64,000 nucleotides of DNA from a virus (taxonomy: Duplodnaviria; Heunggongvirae; Uroviricota; Caudoviricetes), in the IMG/VR virus record IMGVR_UViG_3300005663_003096, one strand, 5' to 3'. Every line of letters starts with the position of its first letter. Position 1 is the stretch's first letter. The notes beneath the pieces were generated by a model. That model did not search any database and had not been told where the DNA came from. It worked only from the letters and a program-made list of their open reading frames with translations. Shown here piece by piece: positions 1,522 through 39,402 of this stretch. The position numbers and the translations under genes are program-made.

Positions 1522-2376
1522 TCAGGCGGACCGTTTCATATGCTTGTACTTCCGATCAAAGCTCGCGAGCTTGGGCAGGTCCATGGCGGCCGGCGAGGCG
1601 CGCATCTTGCCATGATCCAGGAACAGGCTGACAGCGCGATCACGATCGATGATCTTCATCGATTTATCGTCCTGACGTGGGCCCCACCCCACCCGCAGGA
1701 GATAGTTCAACATGCCATCGGGATCGACGCCGTCATCGCGGTAGCCCAGAAGACTTGCCGCGGCGTCTCGCTTGGACATCTTTTTGCCGTCCATCGTGAT
1801 CAAGCCGACATGGGCGAAGTCCGGCATCGCGGCTCCGAGGGCCGTGTAGAGCCCAGCATGGCGGAAGGTATTGGTCAGATGATCCATGCCGCGGATAACG
1901 AGGTTCACACCAAGATCGATGTCATCGACCACGGAGGCGAAATGATAGACCGGCATGCCATCGGCTTTGATTAGCACCTGATCATGCGCCAGATCATGCG
2001 CCTTGGCGCTGGGCAGCTGGTCGCCGGAAATCAGATCATGCCAAGGGGCTGCCGCCCCACCCTTCATCAGTACAGCACCATTATCGGCACGGACCGCCAG
2101 CCCTGCATCTAGAAGCTTTGCAGCCGCGGCGTCATAGATGTCGCGCCGGTGCGACTGGCGGTAGACGGCATCGGGTGCAAGGCCCAGCCAATCGAGACAG
2201 TCGTGGATCACGTCGATCGAGGCGTGGTTGTTGCGCGCAAGATCCGTGTCATCGATGCGCAAGATGAAGCGACCGCCACTGGCGCGCGCTGCGAGCCAGT
2301 TGAAATATGCGGTGCGGGCGGTGCCGATGTGAAAGTCGCCGGTTGGAGATGGGGCGACGCGGGTCGTATAGGTCAT
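1522..2376 (-). CDS. gluQ: glutamyl-tRNA synthetase catalytic-domain paralog (GluQRS/YadB-like; no anticodon-binding domain), ~285 aa
   Basis: Protein from MTYTTRVAPSPTGDFHIGTARTAYFNWLAARASGGRFILRIDDTDLARN with HIGH-type motif (HIGT) and KMSKR. It aligns along the GluRS catalytic core (…VVDDIDLGVNLVIRGMDHLTNT…GKKMSKR…LLGYRDDG…NYLLRVGW) but stops after ~285 aa, as in GluQ-RS. Start set at the ATG at 2376, which has an AAGGA Shine-Dalgarno upstream; the track ORF start at 2538 is upstream read-through. Confidence 0.65.
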   Translation of the reverse strand: MTYTTRVAPSPTGDFHIGTARTAYFNWLAARASGGRFILRIDDTDLARNNHASIDVIHDCLDWLGLAPDAVYRQSHRRDIYDAAAAKLLDAGLAVRADNGAVLMKGGAAAPWHDLISGDQLPSAKAHDLAHDQVLIKADGMPVYHFASVVDDIDLGVNLVIRGMDHLTNTFRHAGLYTALGAAMPDFAHVGLITMDGKKMSKRDAAASLLGYRDDGVDPDGMLNYLLRVGWGPRQDDKSMKIIDRDRAVSLFLDHGKMRASPAAMDLPKLASFDRKYKHMKRSA

Positions 2377-2389
2377 TGCGAAAATCCTT

Positions 2390-2740
2390 TCAGACGCCAA
2401 TTCGATGTGCGTGAGCCTGCAGGTCTTCCGGGTCCGCGATGCGCGAGACGCAGAATGCCATTGGCTCATTGAGAGAAGCCGCAACCAGATCAGGAAACTC
2501 GGCTTTGAGGGTTCGGTATGAAGCCAGGGCTTCTTCATCGAAATACGATCCTATGTGGACCGATGTGGGTAGATAATCTCCGGATGTAGGATCAAAGAGG
2601 CGCTGTGCATCTTGATCTGATCTCTGGCGTGTCTGAAGAACCTTGCTGCGCATCCATGCAGCTGCTTCGCCCCGATCGGGGAAGCGGGGCAGCTCCGGAT
2701 CTGGGGAACGTCGTTTGAAACGGCTCAGCATGGACAGCAT
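2390..2740 (-). CDS. hypothetical protein (~116 aa) between the tRNA genes and the GluRS paralog
   Basis: Sub-ORF of track ORF 2390..2851 starting at MLSMLSRFKRR, just downstream of tRNA-like gene 1. Same strand as, and immediately upstream of, the GluRS paralog. Confidence 0.35.
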   Translation of the reverse strand: MLSMLSRFKRRSPDPELPRFPDRGEAAAWMRSKVLQTRQRSDQDAQRLFDPTSGDYLPTSVHIGSYFDEEALASYRTLKAEFPDLVAASLNEPMAFCVSRIADPEDLQAHAHRIGV

Positions 2741-2756
2741 CTTGGTCTCCTGAATT

Positions 2757-2832
2757 TGGCATCCGCAGCGAGGATCGAACTCGCGTCTTCGGGGTGAGGT
2801 CCCGGTATTCTGACCAATTGAACTATGCGGAC
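2757..2832 (-). tRNA. tRNA-like gene, probably tRNA-Glu(CUC), atypical anticodon arm (C33, 27:43 mismatch); possible pseudo-tRNA
   Basis: Reverse complement GTCCGCATAGTTCAATTGGTCAGAATACCGGGACCTCACCCCGAAGACGCGAGTTCGATCCTCGCTGCGGATGCCA folds as a cloverleaf. It has a 7-bp acceptor stem (G1:U72), D-arm GTTC/GAAT, T-arm GCGAG-TTCGATC-CTCGC, discriminator G and an encoded CCA. The anticodon loop ACCTCAC carries C33. Confidence 0.45.
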
Positions 2833-2845
2833 GTGGTTGTGATTT

Positions 2846-2921
2846 TGGCATCTCCTACGAGTCTCGAACTCGTTTCTGCTGCTTGAAAGGCGGCTGTTCT
2901 AACCGGGTGAACTAAGGAGAC
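2846..2921 (-). tRNA. tRNA-Glu(UUC)-like gene, one C·A mismatch in the anticodon stem
   Basis: Reverse complement GTCTCCTTAGTTCACCCGGTTAGAACAGCCGCCTTTCAAGCAGCAGAAACGAGTTCGAGACTCGTAGGAGATGCCA folds as a cloverleaf. It has a 7-bp acceptor stem, D-arm GTTC/GAAC, a canonical anticodon loop CTTTCAA (U33, anticodon TTC, A37), a perfect T-arm ACGAG/CTCGT, discriminator G and an encoded CCA. It lies 13 nt from tRNA-like gene 1. Confidence 0.55.
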
Positions 2922-2931
2922 GTAAGGGCAT

Positions 2932-2955
2932 AAAAAAACCCGCCTCAGGGGCGGG
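2932..2955 (-). terminator. intrinsic terminator-like hairpin (CCCGCC-N-GGCGGG followed by a U7 tract) on the minus strand, 10 nt upstream of tRNA-Glu-like gene 2
   Basis: Plus strand reads AAAAAAACCCGCCTCAGGGGCGGG. On the minus strand this is a GC hairpin followed by UUUUUUU. Confidence 0.5.
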
Positions 2956-3223
2956 TGCATGGGTATCGGGCGCGAAACTGAACTCTGGCGTCAGCGCGTC
3001 TCTCGATACCCGTATTGTTCTTCCTGAAAGCGGAACATGATTTTCTTCCTTTGATTTGGATATCTTTTTCGCACAACTCAAAGGGTCCGTCAAGAATAAT
3101 TTTCGCAAGCATCGCAGGGCCACTTATCGAGGCATATATGTGGAAAACCCCAGATCATCGTTTTTCTAAAAAGGGTCACAGACTACCCTGACGGCAACCA
3201 TACCTGATAAAAGAGACCTCCTC

Positions 3224-4948: not shown

Positions 4949-5473
4949 ATGATCACAGCAACCCTCATCGGCTATCTCGCGATTGCCATCAGCATCACCA
5001 GTTACATGCTGCGTGATGACCACCGCCTGCGGGTTCTGAACGTCATCTCATGCCTGTTCTGGACCAGCTATTTTGTGATGCTCGGTGAGTGGACCTCGGT
5101 CGCCAGCCTTTCTCTTGCCTGCGTGATGATCTGGGGTGCGCTCTATAGGCACAAACGTACTGCAAATGTCGCCTGGTACCTTTGTATTGCGGCGATTCCG
5201 GCCTCCTTTATGGCTGTCGCCGCAGGGCAGATCACAATGATCGATACCCTCCCCTTCATCGGCGGTGCGGCCATCAATACCGGTGTCGCATTTCTAAGCC
5301 GCGGCAAGCTCACCCTCGCCTGCGCGGCCGGGGAATGTACCTGGGGCCTCTTTGCGGTGATGATTGGCGCCTGGCCAAGCGCCTTCATGGCCCTGTTCTC
5401 ACTGGGTGCTTTGGCCTATCGGGAGTTCTCGCGCTTCAGCTACGAACGCCAGGTCGGGAACGCGCCCGCCTGA
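4949..5473 (+). CDS. multi-pass inner membrane protein
   Basis: Several hydrophobic helices (ATLIGYLAIAISITSYML; VISCLFWTSYFVMLG; WYLCIAAIPASFMAVAAG). Start placed at the ATG at 4949 (MITATL…) inside track ORF 4871..5473. Confidence 0.5.
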   Translation: MITATLIGYLAIAISITSYMLRDDHRLRVLNVISCLFWTSYFVMLGEWTSVASLSLACVMIWGALYRHKRTANVAWYLCIAAIPASFMAVAAGQITMIDTLPFIGGAAINTGVAFLSRGKLTLACAAGECTWGLFAVMIGAWPSAFMALFSLGALAYREFSRFSYERQVGNAPA

Positions 5474-5486
5474 GGCAGGCGCCCTG

Positions 5487-6764
5487 TCAAGGACAGGGCT
5501 CCTCCACTCCCAGGGCTTTTCGCAGTGTGATCTCAACATTCTCACGGCAGGGCCCTTCTGATTTGAGCTTGAGATCATGCCCGCAAAGACCTCCGATAAC
5601 CTCGGCGAGGTTCTCAGTGTCAATCTCTGAAACAAAGGGCCCCTCTCCCATATCCATCACCGAGATCTCGATCTTATCGCCCAGCTGATCGAGGCAGGTG
5701 ACCCCCAGGCCATGATCAATGCCTACGCCCTGCCCTGTGCTGCGCGCGAGATCGGCCGAGATGATGCGGTCCAGCTCTCGGAGGTCCAGAGGTGCATAAC
5801 GGATGGCGTCCTGCCATTCGTTTGGCCTGTTGGTGCGGTCGATCACCTCAGTACCGGGCAAGGGCGTCGTTCCGCGGTCGAGCGGGAACGGCCCTGCCCC
5901 GTGTCGCGTTGCATAGGCCCGGGTCATATAGATGATCTCGAGATCGGTGATCTCGGCGTCTCGAGCGATGTCCACCATATTCTTGGCGCCAGTATGCGAC
6001 CGCGTCACGTGAGGGAATTCTCCGAGGTCCATATCGAGTTGCAACCCTTGGGCGCCCTCAAAGACAATGGCATCGCGATCGCCCAGGGCGCTATCCGACA
6101 TGATCGAGACATACTGCGTAAAGTGGCGCAGATCGTCATAAAATCGCTCAACGACTTCTGGGGCGTTGCCGAGAACAGGCTTTAAATGGTCTGGGATGCT
6201 ATCGAGACCAAGGGCTGCCAGGCGCTGCGGCACCCAAGAACTCGAAATCTCGTCGAGAAATCGTGCGAGGTCAGGCCGCCAAAGGTCATTCATGCAAAGC
6301 ATTGGCCCCTGCTCCTGCCGTTCCAAGGTCTCACCAAAGCCGAGACCACAAGATCCGTGCTTATCACCGCCGCGGAAAATCTCAGCTGCCTGATTGATGG
6401 CCATGTCCCAGGGTGTTGTCACCGCTGTGCGCGGATCGGCCGTGATCTGAATATCCTTTACGCCTTTGCGCGCGAGATCCTCGATCTCAGCAAAGAAGAC
6501 AATCGGATGAGATACAAAGAAGCGGGACAGATGGGTGGCGGCGCCTCGGAAGGATCCGGACCCGATGTGATGGAAGACATGGTGGCGGCCGTCAGCCATG
6601 GTGACGCCGTGGCCCGCCTGTGCGCCGCCATTGGAACGCACGACAGTGACCTGGCGCCCCTGCCCCTCAAGCTGCGCCGTGAGCGCATCTGTGGCCAGCC
6701 CCTTGCCTTCATCACCCCAGCCGGCGCCGATGATCCCACAGGCTTTGCGGATGTCATTTCCCAT
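5487..6764 (-). CDS. adenylosuccinate synthetase (PurA) family protein, divergent paralog
   Basis: Matches PurA signatures: GAGWGDEGKG (P-loop-like GDEGKGK), GGAQAGHGV, FEGAQGLQLDMDLGEFPHVTRSHT, RAYATRHGAGPFP and GVGIDHGLGV. It is 425 aa, clearly divergent from housekeeping PurA. Confidence 0.7.
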   Translation of the reverse strand: MGNDIRKACGIIGAGWGDEGKGLATDALTAQLEGQGRQVTVVRSNGGAQAGHGVTMADGRHHVFHHIGSGSFRGAATHLSRFFVSHPIVFFAEIEDLARKGVKDIQITADPRTAVTTPWDMAINQAAEIFRGGDKHGSCGLGFGETLERQEQGPMLCMNDLWRPDLARFLDEISSSWVPQRLAALGLDSIPDHLKPVLGNAPEVVERFYDDLRHFTQYVSIMSDSALGDRDAIVFEGAQGLQLDMDLGEFPHVTRSHTGAKNMVDIARDAEITDLEIIYMTRAYATRHGAGPFPLDRGTTPLPGTEVIDRTNRPNEWQDAIRYAPLDLRELDRIISADLARSTGQGVGIDHGLGVTCLDQLGDKIEISVMDMGEGPFVSEIDTENLAEVIGGLCGHDLKLKSEGPCRENVEITLRKALGVEEPCP

Positions 6765-23582: not shown

Positions 23583-23636
23583 TTAAAACGCTTAAACTGA
23601 GTAGCGATATAACTTTTGAAACTTACGGACGAATTT

Positions 23637-25340
23637 ATGCTGAAATCGAAAGATGCGTGGCAAGAATATTTCAATGAAGTCAGCTTCCCCCTAAGGGATG
23701 TGAGCAAACATGTCAGCACAGCGGTGTTTGCAGTGTACGATGGAGTGTGCATTTTTTGTAAAGAGCGAAAGGCTGAACACGTAGACCACATCGTTCCGCA
23801 CTCCCTGGGTGGGCCTGATAGATCCGATAATTTCGCTGCATCCTGCACGCGGTGTAATTTGCGAAAACACGATAAATTACTGCCTCTACCGGTTCTCGGA
23901 ATCGCGCTCCTGGAGGCGCGCAGGAAAGCTGAAGATGTAGAGCAAATGATTGCGGAGCTCGAAAATGGGGTTCAATCGACATACAAAGCATATCGATCTA
24001 AAGGGGAACGTGCCGTTCTATTGCACGAAAGCTATATTCTTCATAGATGTGAAGACGGGGGGGGCGTGAGGCCTGTCGCTCGGATCTATTACAAGAATGA
24101 TCCTCGATCTCGGCTAGGTCATCACCATCAGAATGGCGATTTCCCGGATATTCGCTTCTCATACGGCCGCAAATTTCTGAAGTCCAAGATGGCTCACGCC
24201 CTTTCTCCGGGGCTCCCTCTGGAGCCCGAAGAATACAAGAACCCTGAGGACTTCGAGACGCTAAACCTGCTTAGGGATATGGAGCCCGACCATTGGGGGC
24301 GAAGTATCGTGGACTACGCGGTACACCTAACCACCAATCGACATCCCAAGATGAGCGACTACCTCCTCTTCAACGAGACACGGTTCCGCCCTGGAGGTCT
24401 ATTCCTCGCCAAGACGCCCGGAGGTGAGGGAATTGGATACGATATCAGCTTGGCTGATCGTGAGGTGACATTCGATGACGCAGTCCGCTTTCAGACATTC
24501 ATGGATGCACAGGAAGATTTCTGGGCGGAACTTCCCGCTGAACTTCATCATTGCCTTCCAGCCGCTGCTGCTTTGGGGGGCGCTCAGCCGAAGATATGCA
24601 TCGACTGGATGGATGAGCTATGGGTGCTAAAATTGCCAAACGAGCGTCACGTTATCAACATGGCCGCGGCCGAGGCGGGCTGTCTTGACCTTTGCGAAAT
24701 GGCAGGCATTGCCGTACCTGATCGAGAGGTAAGATCCTTTGGACCCCGCTCGAGTGTGTTATTGGTCAAGCGCTTTGACAGAGTTTCCGCGCCTGGAGGC
24801 CGCATTCGCCGCCATATGATATCCTCACTCACACTGCTTGAGCGTCATGAGATGGACCGAGGGGTATCTGGTTATGCTGATATCTACCTAGCACTTCGGG
24901 CTTCCGGAGCGCCCAGTGTCGTCGGTGAGGATCTTTACCGTCGAATGCTGATGAATGTTCTTTGCGGCAATACCGACGATCATTATAGGAACCACGCTTT
25001 TTTCCAGAAAGATGACGGATCATTCACACCAACGCCCGTTTACGATGTCACTCCGACTATTCAAGTATCCCCATCTCGCAGGTTGTTCCTGCATCTCGGG
25101 AGGGCCGGGTGTGGCCGGGATGCGACAGTTGAAAATGCAGTGTCAGCGGCAAGCTCTCTGGATGTCGAACGAGATAGGGCCATTGAGATTGCCAATGAGC
25201 TTAGCTTGATGGTCGCTAGAAGCTGGAAAGATGCGATGAGACGGCATGGCGCGAGTGATGTCTGTATCGAAAGGATGGCGACGAGCTTCTCTGAGGCTGG
25301 CAATACAATCGCCTGCAATGACCCGGGTTTGAACATGTGA
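23637..25340 (+). CDS. HNH endonuclease domain fused to a HipA-like Ser/Thr kinase
   Basis: N-terminal CIFCKERKAEHVDHIVPHSLGGPDRSDNFAASCTRCNLRKHDK is a canonical HNH. The C-terminal part carries the HipA catalytic motifs GAQPKICIDW and CGNTDDHYRNHAFF. Local GC is lower than the flanks. The track ORF starts at TTG 23616; the first ATG is at 23637. Confidence 0.65.
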   Translation: MLKSKDAWQEYFNEVSFPLRDVSKHVSTAVFAVYDGVCIFCKERKAEHVDHIVPHSLGGPDRSDNFAASCTRCNLRKHDKLLPLPVLGIALLEARRKAEDVEQMIAELENGVQSTYKAYRSKGERAVLLHESYILHRCEDGGGVRPVARIYYKNDPRSRLGHHHQNGDFPDIRFSYGRKFLKSKMAHALSPGLPLEPEEYKNPEDFETLNLLRDMEPDHWGRSIVDYAVHLTTNRHPKMSDYLLFNETRFRPGGLFLAKTPGGEGIGYDISLADREVTFDDAVRFQTFMDAQEDFWAELPAELHHCLPAAAALGGAQPKICIDWMDELWVLKLPNERHVINMAAAEAGCLDLCEMAGIAVPDREVRSFGPRSSVLLVKRFDRVSAPGGRIRRHMISSLTLLERHEMDRGVSGYADIYLALRASGAPSVVGEDLYRRMLMNVLCGNTDDHYRNHAFFQKDDGSFTPTPVYDVTPTIQVSPSRRLFLHLGRAGCGRDATVENAVSAASSLDVERDRAIEIANELSLMVARSWKDAMRRHGASDVCIERMATSFSEAGNTIACNDPGLNM

Positions 25341-26523: not shown

Positions 26524-27438
26524 ATGGTTGGTGACGCGGACCTGAATCGAGAGGCACCCTTCGATAACAATATCACCGACGCGCTGGGCCTATATGTCTA
26601 TGCCCTCTTCGATCCGCGAGACGGCTCCCCTTTCTATGTGGGCAAAGGTGGCGGCCGGCACGGCAACGATCGCGTTCTGCACCATTTCTTCGAAGCCAGG
26701 GAAGACATGAAGCGTGAATCTGGTCCCAATGACAAGGAACGCGCCAAGCTCAAAAGGATTCAAGAAATATGGGGCGCCGGTCTCGAGGTTGAATGGAAGA
26801 TCATGCGCCGCAAACTGCGGGATGAGGCGGAAGCACTGAATGTAGAAGCCGCCTTGATGGATGCATTCGCCGCCTGTGGCCACATCCTCACCAACATCCA
26901 AGGCGGCCACAGGAGTGGCCATCAAGGGCTGATTGCGGGGAGTGCGCTAAGGGAATTCGCAGCACCTCCAATCACCGGACAAGATTTCCCGGCCGAGCTG
27001 CGCAACCGACCGATCTTTATCTTCAACATCGGCACCAAGGTCAGCAGGATGTGGAAGAAGATCGACCGGATCAAAAACCCTAAAGAAAGACCTGACTACG
27101 TCAAAGCAACACAATGTTGCTGGAAACTGGGGCCCTATTGGCCAAATCAGCGTGATGCCATCGCCATGGGGGTCGTGGCGGGCATCAGCCGCTCCGCAAT
27201 AGGCATTGCTGATTGGACGCCCTGTACAGATGACCCGGAGCGGTGGCAGATCACGCCGACGGAATTAGATCCTGAAATCCACCAAGTGGTGGTGAACAGA
27301 AAATTCAGCGCGCTTCTTGAGCCAGTCAAAGGGTATCTGCAGCTCGGCGGATTTACCGTCATAGAAATCTCAGACGAGGGCGAATGTACTTTCCTTCGTG
27401 GTTCTAAATCGTCACAGAAGGCTGGTTCCAGCGGCTGA
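26524..27438 (+). CDS. GIY-YIG nuclease domain protein
   Basis: GLYVYALFDPRDGSPFYVGKGGGRHGNDRV contains the GIY…YIG-type pair (LYVY … FYVGKG), with a conserved Arg and downstream Glu/Asn. Confidence 0.55.
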   Translation: MVGDADLNREAPFDNNITDALGLYVYALFDPRDGSPFYVGKGGGRHGNDRVLHHFFEAREDMKRESGPNDKERAKLKRIQEIWGAGLEVEWKIMRRKLRDEAEALNVEAALMDAFAACGHILTNIQGGHRSGHQGLIAGSALREFAAPPITGQDFPAELRNRPIFIFNIGTKVSRMWKKIDRIKNPKERPDYVKATQCCWKLGPYWPNQRDAIAMGVVAGISRSAIGIADWTPCTDDPERWQITPTELDPEIHQVVVNRKFSALLEPVKGYLQLGGFTVIEISDEGECTFLRGSKSSQKAGSSG

Positions 27439-28755: not shown

Positions 28756-29892
28756 TCAGGCAGAGAAGCGCGCGCGCGACGCTGACAGGGCGTCCACGAG
28801 CCCTTCATGGACCTGTCCCGCCTCGCAGTCCTCTCCCAAGCTCACGAGCTCTGAGAGCGCCGCAGAGCGCCCAGGACGACCCTCTAAGCCAAAGGCGCGG
28901 CGCACGTCCGCCAAAGTCTCCATGGTGAGCACATGGGCGCGCTTGCGGCCTTCTTCGAGGATATGGTCTACCAACTCGATATCAGCTGCGGCTTCGGCGC
29001 GCCGCGCCCGCATGGGCGCCAGCATCTCTTGCAAGATCCCGTCCAGACGCCGCTTCAATACCATGTCGCCGAGCCCACCGGCGCGGTACTGATCCTTGAG
29101 GTCCGCTACAGCACCGCTGTCTGGATCAAAAGCATCGAGCATGGCAAAGACCACATTGCCCTCGACCTTGCCGGGGTCCGAGACCTTCAGATGGCCTGGA
29201 TCGGTGAACATGCGCATGACAGCCGCGCGGATCTCTTCCGGGCTGTCGCGCAGCGCGATGGCATTGCCGGCGGATTTGGACATCTTGCCTGCCCCGTCGA
29301 TGCCCGGCAGCCGCGGCGCGTTGCTCTGCATCAAGGTTGGAGAGACCAGGACCTTGCGCCCAGCCATGCGGTTCACCTTCCCCGTGATCTCACCGGTGAT
29401 CTCGACAAGCGGCGCTTGGTCGGCGCCTGCGGGCACGATGTCTGCGCCAAAGGCGGTGATGTCGGCCGCCTGGCTGACCGGGTAGCAAAGAAAGCCCGCC
29501 GGGGTGCCATCGCCGAAGCCGCGCTGGGTGATCTCTTCACGGATCGTGGGAATGCGCATCAGACGCGGCACGGTGACCAGGTTCATATAGAGCATGGTCA
29601 GCTCGTTGAGTGCGGGCAGATCGGACTGGCGCACGATGGTCACCCGCTCAGGGTCGATGCCGGCCGCGATGTAATCAAGCACCACCTCGCGCACATTGGC
29701 CGCCACATCTGCGGCGCGCCCGGCGTTGTCCGTCAGCGCCTGCATGTCGGCGACCAGGATGGTCACGTCGTTCTTGTCCTGCAGGGCGACGCGCGCCTGA
29801 AGGGTCCCGGCGAGATGGCCGAGATGCAGCGCACCGGTGGGCCGGTCGCCGGTGAGGATGGTTCTGCCTTCGAGGGTAGAGAGATCTTGCAT
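28756..29892 (-). CDS. trpS: tryptophanyl-tRNA synthetase
   Basis: Class I motifs TGDRPTGALHLGH (HIGH-type) and KMSKS. TrpRS-specific segments LVADMQALTD (D-x-Q/H-A-x-T) and YPVSQAADITAFGADIVPAGADQ (compare E. coli YPVLMAADILLY…VPVGEDQ). Start at the ATG at 29892 (MQDLSTLEGRTILTG). Confidence 0.8.
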   Translation of the reverse strand: MQDLSTLEGRTILTGDRPTGALHLGHLAGTLQARVALQDKNDVTILVADMQALTDNAGRAADVAANVREVVLDYIAAGIDPERVTIVRQSDLPALNELTMLYMNLVTVPRLMRIPTIREEITQRGFGDGTPAGFLCYPVSQAADITAFGADIVPAGADQAPLVEITGEITGKVNRMAGRKVLVSPTLMQSNAPRLPGIDGAGKMSKSAGNAIALRDSPEEIRAAVMRMFTDPGHLKVSDPGKVEGNVVFAMLDAFDPDSGAVADLKDQYRAGGLGDMVLKRRLDGILQEMLAPMRARRAEAAADIELVDHILEEGRKRAHVLTMETLADVRRAFGLEGRPGRSAALSELVSLGEDCEAGQVHEGLVDALSASRARFSA

Positions 29893-30004
29893 GGTCTTGT
29901 CCTTTATGGAGAGAGGACAGCCGCATGATGGGAAGGGTCTTTCAGGACATCTCAAGCCGCATCACGCGGCCGATCCTGGGGTTGGTCACAGGAATTGGGC
30001 CGCC

Positions 30005-30055
30005 TCAGAGAGGCAGCCACCAATTGATCGCGCAGATGGGTTTATCCTGTGTCAT
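30005..30055 (-). promoter_or_regulatory. candidate Trp attenuator leader peptide MTQDKPICAINWWLPL (tandem TGG TGG codons) ~110 nt upstream of trpS
   Basis: Minus-strand 16-codon ORF ATGACACAGGATAAACCCATCTGCGCGATCAATTGGTGGCTGCCTCTCTGA. Downstream are mutually exclusive pairings GCGGCC…GGCCGC versus GCCGC-gtgat-GCGGC, the latter followed by UU. Confidence 0.45.
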
Positions 30056-30165
30056 GGCGAGACCATAGAAAGCACGGCTCGAAAAGGCAATGCGAAAAGT
30101 GAGAAGTGATCCTTTCGAAAACGGATATGTTTAGCAAGATTCGAAGTAAGCCACGGGACCGGAAA

Positions 30166-37884: not shown

Positions 37885-37984
37885 GAATGGGCTCCTGTGT
37901 TCCAGAACCATATTTCATCTATGCGAAAAAGCGTCTTAGCTTTCCTGTTGACGCGGCATGAGTATTGCGTTTATCACTTACAAC

Positions 37985-38053
37985 ATGATGAACATGATCG
38001 CCTCCACCACGACGACAACAACCACCCATCCCGGGCGGAGCGTTGTCGTGTGA
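37985..38053 (+). promoter_or_regulatory. Thr attenuator leader peptide MMNMIASTTTTTTTHPGRSVVV (seven consecutive Thr codons)
   Basis: 22-codon ORF ATGATGAACATGATCGCCTCC-ACCACGACGACAACAACCACC-CATCCCGGGCGGAGCGTTGTCGTGTGA. The Thr-codon block CGACGACAAC is complementary to the downstream GTTGTCGTG. It is followed by hairpins and an intrinsic terminator, directly upstream of the ThrRS paralog. Confidence 0.65.
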
Positions 38054-38082
38054 GTTGATCTGATCAACACCCAGACTTTGAA

Positions 38083-38107
38083 CCCCGCCGATGACGCGGG
38101 GTTTTTT
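38083..38107 (+). terminator. intrinsic terminator/attenuator hairpin CCCCGC-cgatgac-GCGGGG followed by a T6 tract, between the Thr leader and the ThrRS paralog start
   Basis: Read directly from the sequence: AACCCCGCCGATGACGCGGGGTTTTTTATT. Confidence 0.65.
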
Positions 38108-38151
38108 ATTGTCTCGCGTCCAATCTGATACCCCTCAAAAGGACCAAGACA

Positions 38152-39402
38152 ATGAATAAGAACAACCACAAAGACCTCGATATCCCTCAAGAACAAGGCA
38201 TGGATCCTCTGGACCACCGCGTGCTCGCGCGCCGCCTCGATCTCTATCACATCGAAGAAGATGCGCCGGGCATGATCTATTGGCACGCCGCCGGTTGGCA
38301 GATCTACCGCGAGCTCGAAGATTATATCCGCGGCCGCATGCGGGGCTTAGGTTATGGTGAGGTGCGCTCGCCGCAGCTGTTGCCCCAGTCCCTCTGGGAA
38401 GCCTCCGGTCACTGGGAGAAGTTCGGCGAGAACATGTTCGCCGTGCCGGCGCGCGAGGAAGGCGGCCGCGATATGGCCCTGAAGCCGATGAGCTGCCCGT
38501 GTCATTTGCAGATATTTAACTCGGATCTGCGCTCTTGGCGTGATCTGCCGATGCGCATTGCCGAGTTCGGCCAGTGCCACCGCGATGAGGCTTCGGGCTC
38601 GATGCATGGGCTCATGCGCACCAAGGCTTTCGAGCAGGACGATGCTCATGTGATCTGCGATCCCGGTCAGGTACGCGGCGAGGTTGCGCGTTTCGTTGAG
38701 CTGCTGAAGGAAGTCTATGCCGCTCTGGGCTTTGCTGATTTCGAGGTGGCGCTGTCGCTGCGCCCCGAAAAGCGCGCCGGCAATGATGCGGATTGGGATC
38801 ACGCGGAGCAGGAACTGCTGGGAGCGGCCCTCTCCTGCGGGCTCGACCCGAAGCTGCAGCTCGGCGAAGGTGCCTTCTACGGGCCCAAGCTGGAGTTCGC
38901 GCTGCGCGACAAGAAAGGCCGCTCCTGGCAGTGCGGCACCATCCAGCTCGATATGGTCCTGCCAGGCCGACTGGGCGCATCCTATGTTGGCAAGGACGGT
39001 GCCAAACATGAGCCGGTGATGCTGCACCACGCTGTGTTGGGGTCCTTGGGACGCTTCATTGGTATTCTGCTGGAGCATTGCGAAGGCCGCCTGCCCCTCT
39101 GGCTGGCGCCGGTACAGGTGGCGGTCCTGCCCATTGGGGATGATCAGCGCGACGCTGCTGTGGATGTCATGGACCAGCTGCGCGCCGCGGGGCTGCGCCC
39201 TGCCCTTTTTGATCAATCCGAAGGGCTCGGCCGCCGGATCGTCATGGTCCGCGATCAGTTGATCCCGGTTCAGATCGTGATTGGGAAACTGGAGGTGGAG
39301 CGTGGCGAAGTGATGCTGCAGATCGGCGGGGGCAAAGAGGCGCTGTCGCCAGCCGCGGCCATTGCGCGGATGGGTGAGCTTGTCGGGGTGCCGAAGGGGT
39401 GA
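38152..39402 (+). CDS. threonyl-tRNA synthetase paralog, catalytic plus anticodon-binding domains only (N-terminal TGS/editing domains absent)
   Basis: Aligns with E. coli ThrRS from about residue 225 onward: LDLYHIEEDAPGMIYWHAAGWQIYRELE…KPMSCPCHLQIFNSDLRSWRDLPMRIAEFGQCHRDEASGSMHGLMRTKAFEQDDAHV…QCGTIQLDMVLPGRLGASYVG. 416 aa versus ~640 for full-length ThrRS. Confidence 0.75.
   Translation: MNKNNHKDLDIPQEQGMDPLDHRVLARRLDLYHIEEDAPGMIYWHAAGWQIYRELEDYIRGRMRGLGYGEVRSPQLLPQSLWEASGHWEKFGENMFAVPAREEGGRDMALKPMSCPCHLQIFNSDLRSWRDLPMRIAEFGQCHRDEASGSMHGLMRTKAFEQDDAHVICDPGQVRGEVARFVELLKEVYAALGFADFEVALSLRPEKRAGNDADWDHAEQELLGAALSCGLDPKLQLGEGAFYGPKLEFALRDKKGRSWQCGTIQLDMVLPGRLGASYVGKDGAKHEPVMLHHAVLGSLGRFIGILLEHCEGRLPLWLAPVQVAVLPIGDDQRDAAVDVMDQLRAAGLRPALFDQSEGLGRRIVMVRDQLIPVQIVIGKLEVERGEVMLQIGGGKEALSPAAAIARMGELVGVPKG

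Follow-up and report, generated by a model that had tools for sequence, protein, structure and literature searches.

Leaders with Trp codons in front of trpS, the gene for tryptophanyl-tRNA synthetase (TrpRS), are already described in Streptomyces and Caulobacter. The trpRS1 gene of Streptomyces coelicolor is reportedly under ribosome-mediated attenuation, according to Vecchione and Sello in 2010, and the TrpRS encoded behind that leader is auxiliary and inducible. A related arrangement is the pheST leader of Escherichia coli, a Phe-sensing attenuator of an aminoacyl-tRNA synthetase (aaRS) operon with a cognate-codon peptide, alternative hairpins and a canonical terminator. Trp-codon leaders were predicted for Streptomyces trpS genes, including trpS2 in S. 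avermitilis, and pheST was cited in the same work as an analog of the trpS leader (PMC1262725). In S. lividans, the leader trpL2 is annotated before trpS and contains no uridine-rich stretch (PMC8079986). For Caulobacter crescentus, Fig. 2B of a ribosome profiling study shows that the trpS mRNA carries a short CDS in its leader (PMC4117421).

Here, we describe a leader located in front of a trpS gene in a 64-kb stretch of DNA, which was analyzed as a whole and is called the window below. All evidence on this leader is computational. We consider it somewhat probable that it constitutes a ribosome-mediated leader-peptide attenuator, which couples an accessory trpS on a mobile-element-like region to the supply of charged tRNA-Trp.

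The trpS gene and its leader ORF

The window contains a trpS gene on the minus strand (29892-28756), which encodes a tryptophan–tRNA ligase of 378 residues with an intact KMSKS motif. The protein matches TIGR00233 with 226.9 bits (cutoff 176.75), and Pfam tRNA-synt_1b also matches. The upstream gene ends at its own canonical intrinsic terminator, read from the sequence at 30196-30161 on the minus strand and composed of a GCCCGG...CCGGGC stem followed by GUUUUUCGUUU (tail score 2.52). The leader and trpS therefore form a separate unit.

The leader ORF, MTQDKPICAINWWLPL*, is located on the minus strand at 30055-30005 and is composed of 16 codons plus stop (ATG ACA CAG GAT AAA CCC ATC TGC GCG ATC AAT TGG TGG CTG CCT CTC TGA). 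Its ATG occupies 30055-30053 and its TGA 30007-30005, and the tandem Trp codons UGG UGG are codons 12-13 of 16 (30022-30017, minus strand). The stop is separated from the trpS ATG by 112 nt, in agreement with the original prediction of a 16-codon minus-strand ORF with tandem TGG codons about 110 nt before trpS. The locus thus possesses the short ORF in the 5′ leader and the clustered, conserved cognate codons (UGG UGG) of a trp-type attenuator, and translation of the ORF is predicted. In this sequence alone, 40 copies of TGGTGG are found across the window where 28 would be expected, and the fold z-score of the leader region is only −3.5. The single-sequence case for the leader is weak; its relatives lift the case far above chance.

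Conservation of the leader among trpS relatives

Homologous loci were fetched by TrpRS protein identity, in a search that was blind to the presence of a leader. The comparison set contains 12 divergent loci, whose TrpRS are 62-91% identical to that of the window, and three plasmid outgroups with 55-58% identity; several of the homologs are close relatives of one another. Nearly all of the closest TrpRS proteins are metagenomic; among the 12 loci are those on a 535-kb Paracoccus sp. ME4 replicon, in an assembly of Cereibacter sphaeroides and on contig AXBI01000020.

A leader ORF of 15-16 codons (22 in locus L014) is present in all 12 divergent loci and in all three outgroups. At least one in-frame UGG is found in 15 of 15 loci and an adjacent tandem UGG in 12 of them, the Trp position being 2-4 codons before the stop, or 11 codons before it in the longer ORF of L014. 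The ORF keeps its start, its frame, its length and the place of its stop, while other codons vary, including synonymous third-position changes, and the N-terminus of the leader peptide is divergent. Homologous leader peptides include MKQDKPICSINWWLPL, MTQNKPICSINWRLPL, MKQTCISISALWWLP, MTQNKTHFSQAWWLP and MEHIHISSTFWRWPL, as well as MDKIATLLTRASWLPL, MENASISLVHLWWPAL, MEKMNLIHTHLWWLP and MEKMSAYSPAFWWLPL; L014 encodes the 22-codon MNMTCHTTTWWAPFPAPRIVMS. On the plasmids of Methylocystis rosea, Roseibium aggregatum and Agrobacterium rubi, the trpS leaders read MTSAPTTSLKWWRSF, MENTNVIANLWWLVS and MIDLANINHIIWWRSF*, respectively. Sequence upstream of about −200 is unalignable in the 12 divergent loci, yet the leader is retained, and its helices are kept in all 12. 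Absence of the ORF from relatives had been named at the outset as evidence against a leader; the ORF is kept in 15 of 15 leader-bearing loci. Moreover, the conservation of the first UGG is not explained by RNA pairing, because this codon lies outside every helix. The comparison thus confirms, from sequence, that the conserved leader ORF upstream of trpS is genuine, and it is predicted to be translated.

A covariance model of the leader, built from eight sequences, recovers 14 homologous leaders and matches exactly one site in the 64-kb window. It finds no match before the trpS genes in L001, L002 and L095, which are more distant, and misses the true Paracoccus site in L018, which was recognized only by eye and folding. 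IMG/VR and JGI metagenomes were also scanned with a DNA pattern of the structure alone, which returned 73 stretches, six of which are real, the rest being GC-rich chance matches. The six are all close relatives and all lie upstream of trpS, so the scan added no diversity and revealed no use of the leader before other genes. Rfam at gathering thresholds gave no match across the whole region, including Trp_leader (RF00513), T-box and other leaders and riboswitches, and at E ≤ 10 only chance-level matches appeared.

With the TrpRS as query, the GTDB species genomes yielded only two gammaproteobacterial MAGs (42% identity, no leader), IMG/VR yielded no match, and every match among GenBank phages was at or below 55% identity; megablast of the locus against plasmids gave no match. 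Two other relatives were rejected. The Cupriavidus gene annotated as TrpRS 2 (61% identical) belongs to a surA-pdxA-rsmA operon and has no leader, and trpS on the Rhizobium leguminosarum plasmid pRL23b4 is operonic and likewise has none. In these chromosomal or operonic relatives, the leader is absent.

Predicted promoter and leaderless start

Upstream of the leader ORF, two promoter-like hexamers are found on the minus strand. The −35-like hexamer TTGCCT (30085-30090) is kept in homologs, each of 13 loci having TTGC or TTGA at −35 to −30 from the leader ATG, and is abutted by the over-represented 8-mer TTTTCGCA (30091-30098). The −10-like hexamer TATGGT (30062-30067) ends 6 nt 5′ of the leader ATG. 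In the window, the two hexamers are separated by a 17-nt spacer. The spacing to the ORF is conserved, and a TAnnnT-type hexamer is located at −12 to −7 from the A of the leader ATG, at the same distance in all homologs. A consensus promoter scan of the region found nothing and left this predicted promoter unflagged.

Since the sigma70-like promoter lies at fixed spacing, the start is expected at the A of the leader AUG, which would give a leaderless transcript. No Shine-Dalgarno (SD) sequence precedes the leader ATG in any homologous locus. The promoter register thus suggests that transcription begins at or beside the leader AUG, and not downstream of the leader, where a start would contradict the original prediction. 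A leaderless start is also known for rnTrpL, the trp attenuator RNA of Sinorhizobium meliloti (PMC6614838).

RNA helices of the leader

The RNA is numbered here from the A of the leader AUG (nt 1), and all helices lie on the minus strand. Helix P1 (29998-30018), identified by folding and covariation, pairs strand s1, GGCUGCCUC (30018-30010, nt 38-46), with strand s2, GAGGCGGCC (30006-29998, nt 50-58). Strand s1 carries the GG of the second UGG, and the UGA stop (nt 49-51) is situated in and beside the P1 loop. P1 has a folding energy of −16.9 kcal/mol, 92.8% of its alignment cells are paired and three pairs show double changes; RNAalifold finds it independently.

The antiterminator helix AT (29966-30003) is formed between GCGGCC (30003-29998, nt 53-58) and GGCCGC (29971-29966, nt 85-90), and encloses a nested CCUG/CAGG hairpin (29992-29975) that covaries. 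The same GGCCGC can instead join with GCGGCU in a small hairpin t (29947-29971), GGCCGC-GUGAU-GCGGCU (nt 85-90 with nt 96-101) followed by UGAGAUGU, which is a candidate early terminator. AT appears in the sub-folds of 12 of 12 homologs with 94% of cells paired and an invariant sequence, and t, with 97% of cells paired, is nearly invariant. Both helices are therefore without covariation support. In L014, all four G/C segments (s1, s2, s3 and s4) are changed coordinately. The three segments GCGGCC, GGCCGC and GCGGC-UU (29960-29954) are those of the original prediction, the first starting 1 nt after the stop.

The long-range helix T (29918-29972) connects CGGCCGCGUGAUG (29972-29960, nt 84-96) with CAUCAUGCGGCUG (29930-29918, nt 126-138) through 13 bp and is capped by a structured apical region. 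T dominates the minimum-free-energy fold, has 93% of cells paired and eight pairs with double changes, and is predicted by RNAalifold. Downstream of T, a hairpin occluding the ribosome-binding site (29898-29919) pairs UGUCCU (29919-29914, nt 137-142) with the SD sequence AGGACA (29903-29898, nt 153-158). This SD hairpin is worth −6.1 kcal/mol, with 89% of cells paired and double changes in three of its four pairs. The tail and the SD co-evolve: own partners pair with a mean of −7.49 kcal/mol and swapped partners with −5.46 kcal/mol (permutation p = 0.0004).

In sub-folds of the 12 homologs, P1 ranges from −10 to −17, AT from −16 to −23 and T from −30 to −44 kcal/mol, and the final SD-pairing hairpin is found in most of them at −2.5 to −7 kcal/mol. 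Taken together, P1, the nested hairpin, T and the SD hairpin reach 91.7% paired cells, and 17 of their pairs are changed on both strands, as counted from alignment A5, which was fitted to the T-state model. This pairing is matched by 0 of 500 shuffles, and slid controls reach 32-51%. RNAalifold alone yields the same helices. An extension of T, in which an SD mimic pairs with the anti-SD, was rejected: it is 73.6% paired, a level that 313 of 500 shuffles also reach.

P1, with the second UGG inside and the stop in its loop, as well as T and the SD-occluding hairpin, were absent from the original prediction. The classical attenuation model has no place for an SD-occluding hairpin that co-evolves.

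Ribosome position and modeled helix switching

The position of the ribosome on the leader ORF was modeled by masked folds, in which the footprints are approximations. The second Trp codon occupies nt 37-39. Since s2 begins at nt 50, some 12-13 nt beyond the A site, this strand stays free when the ribosome stalls at Trp. With UGG in its A site, the ribosome protects the RNA to about nt 46-49, covering s1 and the loop, whereas a ribosome at the stop protects to about nt 61-63 and covers all of s2 (nt 50-58).

In masked folds limited to nascent-length RNA, with the polymerase just past t, the stall mask leads to AT in 11 of 12 homologs and the stop-codon mask to t in 12 of 12. On such RNA, t forms with the ribosome at the stop or absent, and AT replaces t upon stalling at the Trp codons. 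P1, AT, t and T share segments and are mutually exclusive in the manner of a trp-type attenuator, and the switch between GCGGCC:GGCCGC and GGCCGC:GCGGCU under the two masks agrees with the overlapping, exclusive stems originally proposed. In equilibrium folds, T wins whatever the ribosome position, even with a stalled ribosome, and it has a toehold of 6-7 bp from which, in the model, AT could be displaced. The switch can therefore act only kinetically, and only at t. For its part, T is unlikely to be a regulated terminator, since it would fire regardless of the stall.

Genomic context of the trpS gene

Most genes neighboring trpS have no Pfam match, and those that match are typical of mobile elements, defense and anti-defense. 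They include an HNH-HipA_C fusion (23616-25340), a GIY-YIG protein matching the defense model PD-T4-3, a PLD-like nuclease, a cpYpsA SLOG protein, a Band-7 protein, a match to the anti-CBASS protein Acb1 and a PurA/PurZ-like enzyme. In four homologous loci (L003, L007, L010 and L013), trpS is flanked by hipB-hipA pairs. Gene content and three isolate assemblies point to the likely host and type of element, and the region looks like a large mobile element.

Two further synthetase-type genes lie in the window. A truncated ThrRS gene (38152-39402) is located behind the leader MMNMIASTTTTTTTHPGRSVVV*, which contains seven Thr codons, and a canonical terminator. Two tRNA-Glu genes and a small ORF, MFRFQEEQYGYRETR*, with its own terminator precede a GluRS/GluQRS-like gene. 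The suggestion that two aaRS genes with cognate leaders reflect a deliberate regulatory design is thus supported by the ThrRS leader, and it gains from the third, GluRS-like gene with its Glu-containing leader.

Output step and proposed mechanism

The ORF, Trp codons, helices, mutual exclusivity, geometry and conservation are shown by sequence comparison and folding, and the geometry fits the classical model. To judge the output step, the tails of the hairpins were scored. A terminator scan of the region found none. The tail after t (UUGAGAUGU) contains only two U residues and scores 1.87, with values of about 2.4 in L003, L007, L010 and L011. Behind T, the tail UCCUCUCUCC offers no U-tract, and its score is 1.45. 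Three bona fide canonical terminators in the same window have tail scores of 2.5-5.0. The trp-operon-like attenuation originally proposed therefore stands for the ORF, the codons and the exclusive helices, but not for termination at GCGGC-UU. In some relatives, an intrinsic terminator with a GC-rich stem and a U-tract is present, which the window leader lacks: the t-equivalent in the Roseibium plasmid (L101) is a canonical terminator with the tail UUUUCGUUUU (score 3.83). T is followed by CUUUUUG in L011, and its tail scores 2.40 in L011, 2.81 in L013 and 2.29 in L014. We infer that t or T serves as the actual terminator and that starvation leads to more TrpRS.

We favor, with modest confidence, a mechanism in which t acts as a weak early terminator that is blocked by AT on stalling, T represents the resting fold of the read-through mRNA, and the SD hairpin tunes translation. 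Transcription would begin at or beside the leader AUG, giving a leaderless mRNA. When Trp-tRNA is plentiful, the ribosome would reach the UGA in the P1 loop and cover s2, and GGCCGC and GCGGCU would form t; in the absence of a ribosome, P1 and t would form. After t, transcription would be prematurely ended or otherwise disabled. When Trp-tRNA is scarce, the ribosome would stall with UGG in the A site, covering s1 and leaving s2 free to capture GGCCGC. The resulting AT would block t, and RNA polymerase would read into trpS. Once the distal strand is made, the much more stable T would displace AT in the full-length mRNA, and the short co-evolving hairpin would then tune access to the SD.

The same sensor might instead regulate translation initiation, the choice between AT and T freeing or hiding the UGUCCU tail for pairing with the SD and start codon of trpS, which we regard as unlikely. 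The tail:SD hairpin is present in all homologs and in outgroups L100 and L102 and co-evolves (p = 0.0004, three of four pairs with double changes), T lacks a U-tract in the window, and the tail of the thrS leader likewise pairs with its own start region. Translational attenuation of the erm/cat type would need a stalled leader ribosome to open the SD hairpin, but in the equilibrium model the ribosome masks open it inconsistently: modeled SD accessibility shows no consistent change with ribosome position across 12 homologs. We therefore treat a purely translational switch as an alternative and not as the lead. T is also thermodynamically dominant in every state, so that the OFF state would be only transient, and the SD-mimic extension of T performs no better than shuffles. 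In the simplest form of this reading, moreover, stalling would free s4 and the tail, occlude the SD and switch trpS off, a reversed logic unlike all characterized aaRS control.

There is likewise only a small chance that classical attenuation with 1:2, 2:3 and 3:4 helices operates, with T as the terminator through its weak C/U tail, help from NusA/NusG, or Rho. T has the strongest covariation of all helices, its tail is U-rich in L011, L013 and L014, and the S. lividans trpL2 before trpS also reportedly has no U-rich stretch (PMC8079986). In the window, however, the tail UCCUCUCUCC scores only 1.45, and rC:dG hybrids disfavor RNA release. The folds further suggest that nucleation at GUGAUG:CAUCAU followed by branch migration would displace AT, so that the stall would offer no protection, and T ends only about 25 nt from the trpS AUG.

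It is very unlikely that the leader senses no Trp at all, being a structured 5′ UTR, an sRNA, a stability element or a trans-acting peptide or RNA in which UGG is a by-product of pairing. Consistent with such a role, the second UGG overlaps s1, TGGTGG is frequent in the window, the apical sequence CUUGUGAUGUCCUGAAAGACCC is kept although no clear role is apparent for it, and the attenuator RNA and peptide of S. meliloti act in trans (PMC6614838, PMC7298713). A pairing by-product would not account for the first UGG, which is conserved though outside all helices, nor for an ORF whose start, frame, length and stop are kept while its codons change; the match of Trp codons to TrpRS is, furthermore, repeated as Thr and ThrRS in the same window. 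An arrest peptide like TnaC, sensing free tryptophan at the stop through a W...P-stop arrangement, is extremely improbable. A W-W-L-P-(L)-stop C-terminus does recur in many homologs, but only W(W) is conserved among C-termini that read LPL, LP, RSF, LVS and PAL, and the Pro-stop order is missing from variants such as WWRSF*, WWLVS* and WWPAL*. The peptide also diverges ahead of the Trp residues, its Pro codon CCU/CCG belongs to P1, and the stop is not followed by a long, unstructured, C-rich rut region.

Implications of the attenuator reading

With the ribosome-mediated attenuator as the preferred reading, the window leader belongs to an uncatalogued family of conserved Trp-sensing leaders, with no Rfam entry and an atypical output, in front of accessory trpS genes on alphaproteobacterial plasmids and large mobile elements. 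Its carriers are Paracoccus, Cereibacter, Roseibium, Methylocystis and Agrobacterium rubi. The family offers a natural series, in which one sensor is joined either to a canonical terminator or to a hairpin without U-tract plus an SD hairpin, and in which the evolution of attenuator output can be followed.

The kinases HipT and HipA2 inactivate TrpS, and HipA inactivates GltX (PMC6581861, PMC7029023). A speculative and rather improbable extension is that the element carries a back-up synthetase circuit, whose synthetases would induce themselves when a HipA-type toxin disables the host enzyme and the charging of its tRNA collapses. The toxin could belong to a host abortive-infection or persistence system, or be the element's own kinase. 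If true, the circuit would be a counter-defense or addiction module rather than simple nutritional control. The presence of three synthetase-type genes with cognate-codon leaders, together with HipA-type kinases, makes the idea of self-inducing back-up synthetases testable.

Comparison with known systems

The window leader resembles E. coli trpL of the trpEDCBA operon in its short ORF, its tandem Trp codons near the stop and its helices of the 1:2, 2:3 and 3:4 type set by the ribosome (PMC6614838). Unlike trpL, it controls an aaRS gene and not biosynthesis, is predicted to be leaderless, and lacks a canonical U-tract while possessing the extra helix T and the SD-occluding hairpin. It shares neither sequence nor Rfam similarity with the Trp_leader family or with any other family. 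Closer in several respects is trpL/rnTrpL of S. meliloti, which is alphaproteobacterial and leaderless and encodes a short peptide with C-terminal Trp codons; its SL1, SL2 (antiterminator) and SL3 (terminator) are like the helices of the window (PMC6614838). In contrast to the window leader, SL3 of S. meliloti has a U-stretch at its end, and the attenuator lies upstream of trpE(G), for anthranilate synthase (PMC6614838).

Among aaRS genes, E. coli pheST has in common with the window trpS a cognate leader and alternative hairpins, whereas the amino acid sensed is Phe and the terminator is canonical. The attenuators of Streptomyces trpS share a Trp-codon leader peptide before the TrpRS gene, and that of S. 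lividans is also without a U-rich stretch. These systems belong to another phylum and their sequences are unrelated; the S. lividans leader carries a single W (MMTRTCTQLWRAA*), and its gene, which is linked to antibiotic resistance, is on the chromosome, in contrast to the mobile-element-like context of the window trpS. The trpS of C. crescentus, as far as the description of its profiled mRNA goes, provides an alphaproteobacterial likeness, a trpS gene located behind a translated small ORF that is read as a leader peptide.

A Thr and a possible Glu leader-synthetase unit

The Thr leader region (37985-38110, plus strand) lies upstream of a ThrRS gene and is composed of the ORF MMNMIASTTTTTTTHPGRSVVV, closed by a stop codon, and a canonical terminator. 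The ORF carries seven Thr codons in an unbroken run and is a second cognate-codon leader of the window besides that of trpS. Downstream of it and before the ThrRS gene, the terminator is formed by AACCCCGCC and GGCGGGGUU followed by U6. In the minimum-free-energy fold, the thrS start region pairs with the terminator U-tract. The Thr leader likewise appears leaderless, with a candidate promoter reading TTGACG, 17 nt, TTATCA. The synthetase gene (38152-39402, plus strand) encodes a truncated ThrRS of 416 aa (TIGR00418, 424.9 bits), which is devoid of the N-terminal and editing domains.

The Glu region (1522-3110, minus strand) is a possible third leader-synthetase unit. Its small ORF MFRFQEEQYGYRETR, ending in a stop codon (3038-2991), is preceded by a Shine-Dalgarno sequence and followed by a canonical terminator (2956-2932), after which come tRNA-Glu(UUC) and tRNA-Glu(CUC) (2921-2757) and a gene for a GluRS/GluQRS-like catalytic domain (2538-1522), all on the minus strand. 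A 116-codon ORF in a different frame (2740-2390) runs over the start of this gene, an overlap that may reflect a frameshift or an assembly error.

An over-represented 8-mer upstream of the leaders

The 8-mer TGCGAAAA occurs 41 times in the window, compared with 2.8 copies expected, and this count was reached in none of 100 shuffles. Its copies (for example 30091-30098, 37922-37929, 3066-3073, and 3100-3107) are biased in strand, 29 being on the plus and 12 on the minus strand, and those in the window share no flanking consensus save a T at position -1. At the promoter of the trpS leader, copies directly adjoin the -35 region, and the promoters of the thrS and Glu leaders also have copies upstream. 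The enrichment extends to five related elements (L011, L013, L017, L019, and L098). TGCGAAAA might act as a signal specific to the element, for regulation, uptake or packaging.

Leader family and nature of the element

Trp-Trp leader ORFs with the same layout as in the window precede the plasmid-borne trpS genes of Methylocystis rosea (locus L100, 1313-1473), Roseibium aggregatum (L101, 1332-1488), and Agrobacterium rubi (L102, 1330-1494). In Roseibium, the small hairpin GGCCGCC/GGCGGCC together with UUUUCGUUUU constitutes a textbook terminator. The leader family therefore reaches well beyond the element of the window.

The majority of the window ORFs have no family match. An adenylosuccinate-synthetase-like protein (5487-6764, minus strand, 425 aa) falls well short of the PurA cutoffs, and it weakly matches the model of phage PurZ, an enzyme of the aminoadenine (Z-genome) pathway. 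A GIY-YIG protein (26524-27438, plus strand) has a match to PD-T4-3, a model for anti-phage defence (E = 1e-24), and one of the 44 window ORFs scanned contains an anti-CBASS Acb1 domain (Pfam, E = 2e-16). The genes present point to a large element resembling a plasmid or a phage, and related contigs extend to 0.5-1.1 Mb.

TrpRS and neighbouring HipA-family kinases

The window TrpRS has 378 aa, compared with about 340 in most homologues, the extra 40 or so residues forming a C-terminal extension (28756-28880, minus strand). In relatives, a called convergent gene overlaps the trpS 3' end by about 55 nt (5083-5137 in related locus L003).

An HNH endonuclease-HipA_C kinase fusion (23616-25340, plus strand) lies 3.4 kb from trpS in the window. 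Classical HTH-HipA pairs directly adjoin trpS in four related loci (L003, 6091-7799; L007, 6126-7834; L010, 5337-8913; L013, 2095-3779), three downstream and one upstream of the gene. TrpS and GltX are known inactivation targets of HipA-family kinases (PMC6581861, PMC7029023). The element itself encodes a TrpRS and has a GluRS-like gene as well.
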